Below are positions 17,476-20,424 of a stretch of DNA of 64,000 nt, one piece after another. Each line of letters starts with the position of its first letter. Position 1 is the stretch's first letter. Origin of the DNA: an uncultured Myxococcaceae bacterium. Lineage in GTDB: Bacteria > Myxococcota > UBA727 > JABDBI01. The notes under the pieces are model-generated. The model did not search any database. It was given only the letters and a program-made list of their open reading frames with translations, and had not been told where the DNA came from. The position numbers and the translations under genes were made by a program. The DNA lies in assembly GCA_964635635.1 (NCBI GenBank), contig CAZWPE010000002.1, positions 22,312 to 86,311 of the forward strand. Direction: 5' to 3'.

Positions 17476-20424
17476 TCAATTGGCATCACTATGAAATGCT
17501 TGTCCTGGATATGCTGTTATAATAATTGGCTTGCCTTGCTTGTAGAGCACCACAATCGTGAGGATTGAAGTTTGAAAGCCACGCGTGAAGCCTACCCCGT
17601 GGTTTAAATCAAGTTCGAAAGCAACTTTATCACCATCAGTATTCACTGGTTTGCCGTGTTCAAGTGTGCTCAGCATGATTTTCTTCAATTCATCTTTCTT
17701 ATTATATCTTGGAAGGAAAATCGATTTTGCACTTTGCATTAGTGAGCCAGTATGTCCTTCAAAGATGTGTTTCCAATTGATGTAAATTTTCTCGCCATCA
17801 TTTTGTCCTGCGTTTGGCATACTTGCTGCAGTTGCAGCACTTGCTGTTTGGATTTGAGTTTGAGGAGGAGGCAGTTGAAGGGTAACGAGTTCTTCTTCTT
17901 GCGAGCCTTCTAACTCTTTCAATAGACCTTCAACATATTCTTGCCAAATCTCTTCAGCTTTTTCTAGCTCGATTCTTCTAACTTCTTCAAACTCTTCTTT
18001 GTACAAAGTCCGAAGTTTTTTATGTGCCCCTGCCCATTCCGTTAAGAGTGAAATGCGGTCCTGCGTTTGCTGGGCAGAGACAGCTTGTTGTTTGTGCGAT
18101 TTTTTTTCTAAAATACGGATCGATTTAAAGGCTTCTTCTTGTGCTGCGGCTATAGAGCTGCGTTCTTCAGTTTCTGTTTCAGAAAACTTTTCTCGTATAG
18201 CCTTGAGCTTTTTTTGTTTTTCAGAGTTCATTCGACTTAGATCTTGCTGAATTGGTTTAAAGTCACGTTGCTTAATGACGTCTTCTCTTTCGCTTATCTT
18301 GGATTCAAAAAATGACTCAACATTATGTATTCCTTTTAAGAAGAATTCTTGATATATTTTTTTAAATTTTTGATAAGACTGGTATTCTTTTGAGTTCAAG
18401 ATCCCGCTTAGTTCAGAATCTTCATCGGATTTAATAGAAGAAATTTTTTCCAGGTAATCTTTTTCTATGGATTTTCGCTCTTGGACCTGTTTGTCTAATT
18501 GTTGCCTTACTTGATTGTTTAATTCGGATTCTTGGATTTCTAGTGCATTCATTGCATCTACTTCTGCGTGTTCGATCCGCTCTACTCCAAGAAACCATTC
18601 ACGTTCGAGCTGAGCTCTATCATCCGAGTTCTTTTGCGCGCGTTTAGCTGCTGCTGAGAGTTCAGCCATTTTATGTTCCAATAGCTTCAGCATGCCACCT
18701 GTAGCAGCTGTTGCGGATGATTTTTGATTTGTTATGCCTGGCGATTTGGCTATTCTCTCTTCCAGTAACTTCAGAATCTTTAGAATCCCGGGGTCTCTTT
18801 GATAGATTTTCAGGTACTCCATCAAGGTGAATCCTTGAAAAGTGTGTTTCTCTGGGTATTTTGGATTTAAATATTCTGGTTCTAATTTATTTAGTATTAT
18901 TTTAAACATCTCAATATGGTTATCGGAGATATTGGCCAGTAAAACAAGAGCCTGTGTTAAGGTGTGATTATAAAAAATATCGCCTTTTGGAAACTTCTGA
19001 TTTAAATCTTTTGATGTTGCCTTATCCACTAGTAACTCAAACATTTTAACACGATTTTTAGAAGGTTTGTCTGACACAATAAGAGACTGCATCAAAGTTC
19101 GGCCAAACATAGGAGAGCTTTTAGGGAACGTCTGATTCAAAGCTTTTGGTGTATCGTTATTTAGCAGTACTTCGAATATTTTTAAATGATTTGGAGAATT
19201 CCCTCCTGATATGGCAAGAGCTTGTATCAAGGTTAAGCCGGCAAAAAGATGGTTTTCAGGGAACTTCTGATTCAAGTCTTTTGATGTTTCCTTATCAAGC
19301 ATCATCTCAAGAATCTTGGCATGATTTTCAGAGACTTCTTGTTGTATGACAAGAGCTTGCATTAGGTTAATATCGGAAAAAGCGCTGTCTTCAGAAAGCT
19401 TCTGTCTTAAATCTTCAAACGTTGCTCTGTCTAGAAGAAATTTAAACATCTCGATGTCATTTAAAGAAACTTCTGTTGATACAACAATGGATTGAATCAA
19501 AGTAAATCCAGCAAAAGCACTTCCTTTCGGGAATCTAGTATTTGGATCTTGACCAGATTCAACAGCTTTTCGGATTTGTTCCCAATCAATTTCAGACTCG
19601 CTCATCAGCTCCAAAAGGGTAGGCGAAGAAGAGGCAGATGAAGAGCCGCCACCTGCAGCTGCTGTCGCAGAGTTTGCTTGATTTCCTCGACCTCTACCCG
19701 TGAGAGAGCCTCGTCCGAATCCACCTCGACCTGCAGGAAGTTCTCTTTTTACATAGAATGCATCATCTTCATCTTCCGAATTACCGCCACCTCTTAAAGC
19801 TAAGTGAAGCTTGAGTTTTCCTGATGCTTGATTTTCAGGATTTTTGTCTTCTGGATGAAATTGATACCAGTCTTTAACCAATTGCCATAGATTCCACAAA
19901 GAAGAACCAGCCCGAATGCCATTCCAAATTTTGCTATAAGTCTTTGCTTCTGCACGACCTGCGTCAAAGTTTTCTTTAAAACTTCCTTCGGGCATTAAAT
20001 TATTTTTGGCTTGCTCGAGTTGAGAGTTCGCAAAAGCGTAAGGTAAATTGACAGGGTTGTATTGATTAACATAAGCGATTTTAGGCTCATGACCCGTGTA
20101 TAGCGAAAGCATCTGCTCTAAAGAATCAACAAGGTTTGCAATATGACAAATTCCAGCGATGCAATTGAGAGCAGGAACAGCAGGGATATACGTCTGAGCA
20201 GACCGGAGGACATAAGAAACTCCTACGGATGAAGCCGTTGGCATAATGTATTCATAAGCAAAACCTGCGCCCTGAGCTGCCTTGTCATGCAAGGCTGTTT
20301 CTTGCACAAAATTAATATACCCAAAATCAGCCTTTGTTTGGTTCGCAAAACCAAACTGAGCTAAAAACAGGAAATAAAAAGACGCCAGTTTAAAAATGCT
20401 TAATATCACAAAATAACAATACAT
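17476..20424 (-). CDS. Large secreted protein (982 aa): signal peptide, N-terminal domain, Gly/Arg/Ser-rich low-complexity linker, six ~45-aa tandem helical repeats, ~250-aa coiled coil, C-terminal ~110-aa globular domain of unknown function
   Basis: Read directly from the translation. No family recognised with confidence. Confidence 0.6.
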   Translation of the reverse strand: MYCYFVILSIFKLASFYFLFLAQFGFANQTKADFGYINFVQETALHDKAAQGAGFAYEYIMPTASSVGVSYVLRSAQTYIPAVPALNCIAGICHIANLVDSLEQMLSLYTGHEPKIAYVNQYNPVNLPYAFANSQLEQAKNNLMPEGSFKENFDAGRAEAKTYSKIWNGIRAGSSLWNLWQLVKDWYQFHPEDKNPENQASGKLKLHLALRGGGNSEDEDDAFYVKRELPAGRGGFGRGSLTGRGRGNQANSATAAAGGGSSSASSSPTLLELMSESEIDWEQIRKAVESGQDPNTRFPKGSAFAGFTLIQSIVVSTEVSLNDIEMFKFLLDRATFEDLRQKLSEDSAFSDINLMQALVIQQEVSENHAKILEMMLDKETSKDLNQKFPENHLFAGLTLIQALAISGGNSPNHLKIFEVLLNNDTPKALNQTFPKSSPMFGRTLMQSLIVSDKPSKNRVKMFELLVDKATSKDLNQKFPKGDIFYNHTLTQALVLLANISDNHIEMFKIILNKLEPEYLNPKYPEKHTFQGFTLMEYLKIYQRDPGILKILKLLEERIAKSPGITNQKSSATAATGGMLKLLEHKMAELSAAAKRAQKNSDDRAQLEREWFLGVERIEHAEVDAMNALEIQESELNNQVRQQLDKQVQERKSIEKDYLEKISSIKSDEDSELSGILNSKEYQSYQKFKKIYQEFFLKGIHNVESFFESKISEREDVIKQRDFKPIQQDLSRMNSEKQKKLKAIREKFSETETEERSSIAAAQEEAFKSIRILEKKSHKQQAVSAQQTQDRISLLTEWAGAHKKLRTLYKEEFEEVRRIELEKAEEIWQEYVEGLLKELEGSQEEELVTLQLPPPQTQIQTASAATAASMPNAGQNDGEKIYINWKHIFEGHTGSLMQSAKSIFLPRYNKKDELKKIMLSTLEHGKPVNTDGDKVAFELDLNHGVGFTRGFQTSILTIVVLYKQGKPIIITAYPGQAFHSDAN

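Follow-up and report, generated by a model that had tools for sequence, protein, structure and literature searches.

The stretch of DNA analysed here, 64,000 nucleotides from an uncultured Myxococcaceae bacterium (contig CAZWPE010000002.1 of assembly GCA_964635635.1; hereafter the window), carries on its minus strand, at 17476..20424, an uninterrupted open reading frame (ORF) of 982 amino acids (aa) plus a stop codon. From its sequence and from predicted structures we tentatively propose that the encoded protein acts as a secreted ankyrin-like effector whose C-terminal warhead, of RNase type, is directed against a non-kin cell. Two parts of the protein carry this proposal. Its middle holds six 45-residue repeats that are, by profile comparison and predicted fold, an expanded ankyrin-like unit, and it ends in a compact domain, the most conserved part of the protein, which resembles the DUF4258/Ntox49 branch of the colicin-like BECR (Barnase-EndoU-Colicin-RelE) toxins. 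A secreted effector with a small C-terminal warhead is also what a sequence-only reading of this DNA, made without database searches, had suggested, and it remains the interpretation that we prefer.

The ORF was defined from an ORF listing and its translation, and an independent assembly (Logan contig SRR16481186_626401) encodes an identical 982-aa protein together with the same two neighbouring genes; the layout of a single multidomain protein given by the sequence-only reading was largely right. Neither the whole protein nor any of its segments gave a match above threshold in Pfam, NCBIfam, PADLOC or PHROGs, and the whole protein likewise found no match among PDB sequences. A DED match (E 0.39) that surfaced in the family scans was discarded as noise.

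An ankyrin-like solenoid with a 45-residue repeat

Six helical repeats of about 45 aa had been noticed in the protein before; their number and period are borne out, but their ankyrin-like nature had gone unrecognised. The period is exactly 45 aa, with G-x-T-L-[IM]-Q anchors at residues 306, 351, 396, 441, 486 and 531 and the consensus FP.gs.FAG.TLiQaLv.....S.N.lEMFKLLL.KAT.eDLnQK. Six repeats are also present in the sole full-length homologue that we found, an 841-aa protein referred to below as P0002.

A profile of the twelve repeats from these two proteins matched, among PDB sequences, the designed consensus ankyrins 4qfv (E 2.5e-9), 4o60 (2.2e-5) and 1n0r (1.1e-4), followed by many designed ankyrin repeat proteins (DARPins). 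The matches span 13-17 residues per repeat and lie over the second helix, where the motif S-x-N-H-L-E-M-F-K-L-L-L-x-K stands against N-G-H-L-E-V-V-K-L-L-L-E-K of the consensus ankyrins. Structure prediction pointed the same way. An AlphaFold2 (AF2) model of residues 266-563, with a predicted local distance difference test score (pLDDT) of 85.2 and a predicted template modelling (TM) score (pTM) of 0.82, consists of regular helix-loop-helix-hairpin units, and when it was searched against PDB with Foldseek all of the top 50 matches were ankyrin domains or designed proteins with an ankyrin-repeat (DARPin-type) module (best E 7.5e-5; probability 1.0 for nearly all, range 0.96-1.00; TM-scores 0.4-0.55). 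The best of these structural matches include ankyrin domains of RNase L, which is a similarity of fold only, and the Bd3460 immunity protein also appears among the fold matches.

Compared with canonical ankyrins (the Pfam Ank clan, DARPins, 1N0R and 4QFV), the predicted units stack in the same helix-loop-helix-hairpin fashion and the first-helix motif G-x-T-L-I-Q resembles G-x-T-P-L-H. However, the period is 45 residues instead of 33, in the model the inter-helix and hairpin loops are longer and a short third helix is present, the TM-scores just given are low, and the Pfam Ank models do not match the 982-aa protein at E<=10. By profile and by model, then, the repeats are an expanded ankyrin-like unit and not a canonical ankyrin.

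The C-terminal domain and its similarity to DUF4258

The compact C-terminal domain comprises about 106 aa and is present in three known proteins: the 982-aa protein itself (P0001), P0002, and a 204-aa fragment, P0003. Invariant in all three are W884, H886, E889 and H891, as well as I969, T970, Y972 and P973, the final strand reading IITAYP. The sequence-only reading had described a domain of about 110 aa with conserved His, Arg and Glu; the domain, its His and its Glu are confirmed by this comparison, but no Arg is invariant, the invariant basic residues being Lys (K910, K915 and K925).

In Pfam searches DUF4258 (PF14076), which overlaps Ntox49, was the top match for two of the three family members (P0002, 13.9 bits, E 0.067; P0003, 13.6 bits, E 0.085), and for the family consensus of the domain it was the sole family reported (17.1 bits, E 0.0071). 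For a direct comparison, DUF4258 sequences were collected independently of the query, by scanning IMG/VR with a degenerate DNA pattern for H-A-x-x-R-M-x-E-R-G-I and extracting the ORFs; together with three members of an Athalassotoga plasmid family these gave an alignment of 20 sequences, of which Pfam confirms 19 as PF14076. The three-member profile of the C-terminal domain aligned with this set in hhalign over 55 columns, from the main helix to the last strand, with a probability of 72.4% and an E-value of 3.3e-5. The real score of 29.85 compares with 9-10 ± 2 (maximum 16.8) for column shuffles, 150 per alignment, while block shuffles attained it in none of 100 trials with 8-column blocks and in 4 of 100 with 14-column blocks. 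An earlier and shallower DUF4258 profile, built from seven close relatives of the Athalassotoga plasmid gene, had given an hhalign probability of 2% and covered the last hairpin only. Other searches added little: tblastn of the DUF4258 consensus against plasmids returned one match, the same consensus against PDB retrieved designed helical proteins only, and the profile of the C-terminal domain had no match among PDB sequences. We regard the similarity to DUF4258 as real but moderate, and not as decisive.

The predicted arrangement of the domain is consistent with this assignment. Its AF2 model has the order H-H-E-E-E-E, a short helix and a second helix followed by four antiparallel strands. 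Colicin-like BECR domains have a [pre-alpha + alpha beta1-4] topology, with active-site residues on the pre-helix and on beta4 and with a catalytic His (bioRxiv 10.64898/2026.08.28.747851). The topology of the model, which is of low confidence, appears to correspond to this one, and in it the two groups of invariant residues fall on the pre-helix (W884, H886, E889, H891) and on beta4 (I969, T970, Y972, P973), respectively. For Ntox49, Zhang et al. (2012, PMC3482391) give a conserved H and [KR] as the defining residues. H886, H891 and K910 do not vary among the three proteins of the family; when aligned with a permissive setting, and only then, the His of DUF4258 pairs with H891, the Arg of ERGI with K910 and the invariant Thr with T970, which would agree with this "H, [KR]" signature. 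Candidate active-site residues are H886, E889 and H891 on the putative pre-helix, K910, and T970 with Y972 on the last strand.

Further likenesses to DUF4258/Ntox49 domains lie in the size (about 70-100 aa), the C-terminal position, a His on the predicted first helix with a basic residue nearby, and the last strand, for which a common pattern [IV]-[IV]-T-[AV]-[YF]-P can be written; IITAYP here stands beside IITAYF, IVTTYP and VITVF in DUF4258 members. DUF4258/Ntox49-type toxins occur as type II toxin-antitoxin toxins, as MuF-fused phage toxins and as the C-termini of polymorphic toxins. Among the IMG/VR phage contigs, the last 80 or so residues of long ORFs are DUF4258 in L062, L064, L076 and L089 (531 aa) and in L067, L086 and L091 (455-462 aa); going by precedent in the literature, these long proteins are probably MuF-type fusions, and the C-terminal ...IVTTYP of some of them is close to IITAYP in the 982-aa protein. 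Taken together, homology of the C-terminal domain to DUF4258/BECR appears reasonably probable from the sequence comparisons, and the guess of a barnase/EndoU-like fold made in the sequence-only reading plausibly named the right superfamily. That the domain is an active RNase we suggest with more reserve, and we would not put it beyond a working possibility.

A number of results weigh against the proposal. The C-terminal domain of the 982-aa protein itself has no Pfam match, and every DUF4258 score in the family, the best at 17 bits, falls below the gathering cutoff of 25 bits. The hhalign probability rises no higher than 72%, and the match leans on the beta3-beta4 hairpin (...VV...IITAYP), as the 14-column block shuffles indicate. 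The hallmark H-A-x-x-R-M-x-E-R-G-I of DUF4258 is not present as such, W-[KR]-H-I-F-E-x-H standing in its place, and the pre-helix aligns to DUF4258 at the permissive setting only, with an insertion of about 11-16 residues. The conservation statistics, drawn from three family members, are thin. The AF2 model of the domain has a pLDDT of 67 and was built from 2 sequences, and a Foldseek search of PDB and BFVD with this low-confidence model, a check that the sequence-only reading had suggested, recovered no BECR protein at significance nor anything else that was significant, but only curved-sheet alpha+beta proteins of a generic kind (NTF2- or cystatin-like). P0002 lacks an N-terminal signal peptide, so that either export is not conserved across the family or the start codon of P0002 has been miscalled. 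Finally, no feature of the window suggests a life in association with eukaryotes, and the chromosome looks free-living.

Several of these points could also be expected if the C-terminal domain were a non-catalytic small alpha+beta binding or adaptor domain and the protein a surface or periplasmic scaffold or adhesin, its ankyrin-like repeats and helical stalk serving as modules for protein interaction. That the domain reaches no curated model, retrieves generic NTF2-/cystatin-like folds at non-significant scores and has not kept the canonical DUF4258 motif all suits such an explanation, as do its strong purifying conservation, which an ordinary functional domain would also show, and the lack of an immunity gene, which a non-toxin would not need. 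It is harder to reconcile with a DUF4258 signal that recurs across independent tests and beats shuffles, and with the clustering of the invariant H886, E889, H891, K910, T970 and Y972 on the two BECR active-site elements, which is more typical of an enzyme. We consider a binding domain unlikely, and retain the RNase-type effector as the preferred reading.

A three-member family with a conserved C-terminal unit

The family is very small. A search of 5.8 billion clustered proteins returned the 982-aa protein itself and a single homologue, P0002, at 37% identity, and an exhaustive HMMER search with the profile of the C-terminal domain over 1.84 billion representatives found only P0001, P0002 and P0003, the last of which is incomplete, its reading frame running off the 5′ end of a 694-nt contig. 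In all, the family amounts to three sequences among about 15 billion proteins. A word-index search with the same profile gave no match, even to the query itself, and two scans of the JGI metagenomes, one with the repeat region and one with the full length, were empty. Species-representative genome contigs scanned with patterns from the C-terminal domain likewise gave no match, so neither source genome appears to be a species representative in that collection. Paralogues of the repeats or of the C-terminal domain were found neither in the window nor in 54 fetched loci.

Conservation between the 982-aa protein and P0002 is distributed unevenly. Identity is 40% in the ankyrin region, 26% over residues 567-780, 57% over residues 781-850 and 64.5% in the C-terminal domain, while the N-terminal 180-230 or so residues of P0002 are unrelated to the N-domain of the 982-aa protein; an alignment of the two N-termini scores under the shuffle mean. 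An N-domain of about 230 aa had been recognised in the sequence-only reading, and a domain is indeed present at residues 28-231, but it is not conserved in the sole full-length homologue. It has no match in Pfam or PDB, and its peptide patterns GFAYEYIM and VKDWYQFH gave none in metagenome contigs.

The region between the repeats and the C-terminal domain, previously described as a coiled coil of about 250 aa, is rich in charge (40-50% E/K/R/Q over residues 564-850 or so) and poor in Pro and Gly, and by its composition it is very probably helical. The Fourier power of its hydrophobic periodicity at 3.5 residues is low (<=0.5) across residues 575-850, with no clear heptad signal, so that it is better described as a long helical region, which may or may not form a coiled coil. 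Its last 70 or so residues (781-850) are conserved together with the C-terminal domain and are also recognisable in P0003.

A short junction motif, [NS]-S-A-T-A-A-[AT]-[GS]-G, with the variant S-A-A-T-A-A-S, recurs at three domain junctions of the 982-aa protein. It does not occur in the window's other ORFs of at least 150 aa, and its expected count, calculated from composition, is about 0.002. P0002 carries it at two equivalent junctions (residues 179-187 and about 712-719), the second, SSVTAASMP, being the counterpart of ASAATAASMP here, and again at its extreme C-terminus (834-841); P0003 has a related stretch at residues 69-75. Because the copies differ at synonymous codon positions, it seems to be the peptide rather than the DNA that is conserved. 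The motif may serve for processing or be a favoured linker between modules.

At the other end of the protein, residues 1-25 are its sole strongly hydrophobic segment (Kyte-Doolittle >1.6, 19-aa window) and are followed by FGFA and then NQ. The segment has one Lys and an unusually long and aromatic h-region. It is probably a Sec signal peptide or a signal anchor, as the sequence-only reading had also seen it. Start codons of this genome cannot be checked through ribosome-binding sites, because Shine-Dalgarno motifs are generally lacking: almost none of 20 genes of the window that were inspected has a recognisable one upstream.

The Gly/Arg/Ser-rich linker noted earlier could be placed at residues 232-268 (RGGFGRGSLTGRGRG...GGGSSSASSS); its GC content is 0.58, against 0.39 for the gene as a whole. 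Within it, an RGG/GAR-type box (RGGFGRGSLTGRGRG, residues 233-247, window 19684-19728, minus strand) is absent from P0002. Boxes of this type resemble the Arg-Gly-rich motifs, for RNA binding or methylation, that eukaryotic nucleolar proteins carry.

The unit that the 982-aa protein and P0002 have in common, ankyrin-like repeats, helical region and C-terminal domain, invites comparison with RNase L, which shows the same order of ankyrin repeats, dimerising middle region and C-terminal RNase domain. The resemblance is architectural only: the RNase folds are unrelated (KEN versus BECR), the pseudokinase is missing here, and the N-terminus here is signal-peptide-like. Following the logic of RNase L, the protein might be a cell-autonomous sensor-effector in defence or stress, in which the ankyrin region senses or inhibits, the helical region oligomerises and the BECR domain cuts the cell's own RNA or that of a phage. 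Intramolecular inhibition would make a separate antitoxin unnecessary, and P0002, with the shared unit and no signal peptide, fits such a role; the fold similarity of the repeats to RNase L ankyrins and to the Bd3460 immunity protein is in keeping with it too. There are also precedents: BECR defence toxins with several domains and fusions of toxin and antitoxin have been described (PMC11980606), and ankyrin repeats act as immunity domains (Imm-Ank, PMC3482391). Nevertheless, the signal-peptide-like start of the 982-aa protein and the export predicted for its 591-aa neighbour do not suit an intracellular sensor, the flanking genes are housekeeping genes and not a defence island, PADLOC gave no match, and no nucleotide-sensing or NTPase module is present. 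We hold this explanation to be improbable.

A related idea, to which we give equally little weight, is that the conserved unit is a self-contained, autoinhibited RNase in which the ankyrin solenoid serves as built-in immunity or sensor domain and the SATAA junction motifs as processing sites that release the warhead. If true, it would be an undescribed bacterial RNase L-like or proteolytically armed toxin architecture on a 45-residue ankyrin variant.

No immunity gene and an inverted polymorphic pattern

The sequence-only reading had seen no obvious immunity gene after the 982-aa gene, with rsmD next, and this holds: the gap to rsmD is 34 nt and leaves no room for another gene. An antitoxin or immunity gene of the kinds that accompany DUF4258/Ntox49 toxins (for example DUF2283, MqsA or Imm22) was not found adjoining the 982-aa gene, in contrast to locus L054, where a DUF4258-DUF2283 gene pair is seen; nor were orphan toxin or immunity cassettes found nearby. 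One candidate for an immunity gene was considered, a 60-aa ORF with a TTG start (17297..17479, minus strand) that opens at the stop codon of the 982-aa gene. Since it runs through the conserved 5′ end of rsmD in another frame, it is probably not a gene and was judged to be spurious.

The layout had also been likened to that of polymorphic toxins, for which the same N-terminal region would be expected on different C-termini while an invariant C-terminus would speak against it. The opposite of the polymorphic pattern was observed. Comparison with P0002 shows a conserved C-terminus: conservation centres on the C-terminal domain and variation on the N-terminus, and the pattern is therefore inverted. 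The N-domain was found with no other C-terminus, either among the 5.8 billion clustered proteins or in the JGI metagenomes. Similarly, RHS, FilH, LXG, PAAR, MuF, VENN and HINT modules had no Pfam or NCBIfam match in the protein. The signal-peptide-like leader and the ankyrin-like repeats, the only such modules present, are listed for Sec-dependent toxins, and Ntox49 is a bona fide polymorphic-toxin domain (PMC3482391). A classical polymorphic toxin with an exchangeable warhead against related bacteria, its immunity protein encoded elsewhere or in an overlooked small ORF, could thus point to the long scaffold with a small C-terminal BECR-like domain, the Sec-type leader and the 60-aa ORF, yet given the conservation pattern, the missing delivery modules and cassettes and the position of that ORF we regard it as very improbable.

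Genomic context

The features of the locus are collected in Table 1. No terminator-like site was found in the gap between the 982-aa gene and rsmD, and the two are probably co-transcribed. In the divergent intergenic region shared by the 982-aa and 591-aa genes, promoter-like matches occur no more often than in shuffled sequence. The 591-aa orphan has a hydrophobic hairpin of about 40 aa at residues 432-470 or so and no match in Pfam, NCBIfam or PDB; it is possibly a functional partner of the 982-aa protein, as a translocator or membrane anchor. An apparent homology between this neighbour and the N-domain of the 982-aa protein (BLASTP E 0.94) was rejected.

Table 1. Coordinates of the 982-aa protein's segments and of adjoining features (positions in the window; residues refer to the 982-aa protein)
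Feature	Position	Strand	Residues, basis or remark
Hydrophobic N-terminus (MYCYFVILSIFKLASFYFLFLAQFGFA, followed by NQ), probable Sec signal peptide or signal anchor	20344..20424	-	aa 1-27; hydropathy
Orphan N-domain	19732..20343	-	aa 28-231
Gly/Arg/Ser-rich linker with RGG-type box and first SATAAA motif	19621..19731	-	aa 232-268; sequence reading
SATAAA motif 1, N-domain/ankyrin junction	19654..19671	-	aa 252-257; same motif at the equivalent junction of P0002
Ankyrin-like solenoid: shorter N-terminal capping unit, then six 45-aa repeats	18736..19620	-	aa 269-563
Long charged region, Pro/Gly-poor, presumably alpha-helical (stalk or oligomerisation)	17875..18735	-	aa 564-850
SATAAT motif 2, ankyrin/helical junction	18700..18717	-	aa 570-575; no counterpart there in P0002
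Pro/Gln-rich linker with third S-A-[AT]-[TA]-A motif (ASAATAASMP)	17797..17874	-	aa 851-876
SAATAA motif 3, helical/C-terminal-domain junction	17824..17841	-	aa 862-867
C-terminal domain, candidate divergent DUF4258/Ntox49-like (colicin-like BECR) RNase domain	17479..17796	-	aa 877-982
rsmD (16S rRNA methyltransferase family)	16893..17441	-	Pfam Cons_hypoth95, E 2e-41; 34 nt downstream
Divergent intergenic region, 180 bp, common to the 982-aa and 591-aa genes	20425..20604	.	ORF coordinates
Divergent 591-aa orphan with clear signal peptide (MNWIKFVLILLSAASLSFG, followed by Q) and hydrophobic hairpin	20605..22380	+	hydropathy

The nearest genome that could be found through Mfd is a groundwater metagenome-assembled genome, 'Myxococcales bacterium nzgw263' (L002), with 59% Mfd identity. 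There, rsmD and mfd are adjacent and divergent (7419-7928), whereas in the window about 4.9 kb with the two orphan genes intervenes (17442-22401). The GC content at third codon positions is 0.32 for the 982-aa gene and 0.35 for the 591-aa gene, against 0.38-0.47 for their neighbours. From these two observations we infer that the two orphan genes were acquired lineage-specifically. A mobile-element origin of the insertion was not supported: flanking direct repeats were not found and the window has no Rfam matches, tRNA and integrase genes not having been specifically searched.

The remainder of the window is an ordinary Gram-negative chromosome, with genes for BamA, PBP2/RodA, SMC, YidC, MetK, Fur, DabAB, an Opp transporter and pyruvate kinase. 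At 5098-8846 on the minus strand, a DabB-like protein (NuoL/Mrp-type, 591 aa) and DabA (PF10070, E 4e-165), followed by a SulP-family transporter, form a DAB-type module for the uptake of inorganic carbon. Two genes away from the 982-aa gene, at 15525-16310 on the plus strand, an S1/P1-family nuclease (PF02265, E 9.5e-42) has a hydrophobic N-terminus and overlaps the metK stop codon by 4 nt; from its sequence it is likely to be secreted.

Discussion

In the reading that we prefer, the 982-aa protein would be a lineage-restricted, probably Sec-exported multidomain effector that opens with its signal peptide. The non-conserved N-domain may set localisation or delivery, and the ankyrin-like solenoid would bind a target protein. 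A charged helical stalk would follow, its last 70 or so residues being conserved as a unit together with the C-terminal domain. Once the protein has been exported and has entered another cell, that domain would cleave RNA, with catalysis proceeding through the pre-helix His (H891 and/or H886, with E889), the basic K910 and, on the last strand, T970 and Y972. Characterised colicin-like BECR toxins mostly cut tRNAs. The target would be a non-kin cell, be it a eukaryotic host or grazer or prey, rather than sibling bacteria; a non-kin target is the more likely because an immunity gene is lacking, the C-terminus is conserved and the repeats are of ankyrin type.

Among known proteins, the ankyrin-repeat nuclease effectors of Wolbachia and Amoebophilus seem to us the closest precedent. 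In these bacteria Tox-REase-8 is found with ankyrin arrays, has no immunity genes and is considered host-directed, and mimivirus has a fusion of Ntox19 with ankyrin repeats (Zhang et al. 2012, PMC3482391). As in those effectors of eukaryote-associated bacteria and giant viruses, which carry a Sec-type leader or none, an ankyrin array here precedes a C-terminal nuclease-type domain, no immunity gene is present, and the presumed target lies in the cell of another organism. The differences are that the toxin family is another one, that the repeats measure 45 aa instead of 33, that a long helical spacer is inserted, and that the protein comes from an uncultured bacterium, with no indication of endosymbiosis in the window. 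With respect to the DUF4258/Ntox49 proteins, it is likewise the fusion that sets the 982-aa protein apart, as ankyrin-like repeats joined to a helical region of about 290 aa were not found in the two BECR surveys that were consulted.

With three sequences in about 15 billion and a function proposed from sequence, the general importance of the family is limited for now. The comparison does illustrate that an ad hoc profile of a suspected family can tie orphan C-terminal domains to toxin families. The 45-residue ankyrin-like repeat, whose prediction is of high confidence, provides a clean natural case of an expanded unit of the ankyrin type, and the SATAA(A/T) junction motif may indicate where modules meet or where the protein is processed. 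Should the C-terminal domain indeed be an active RNase, the DUF4258/Ntox49 branch of the BECR toxins would extend to a form that is invisible to current models and would gain a new architecture, in which ankyrin-like repeats and a helical stalk stand without an immunity partner, and the protein would be one more among the few nuclease effectors presumed to act on non-kin cells.

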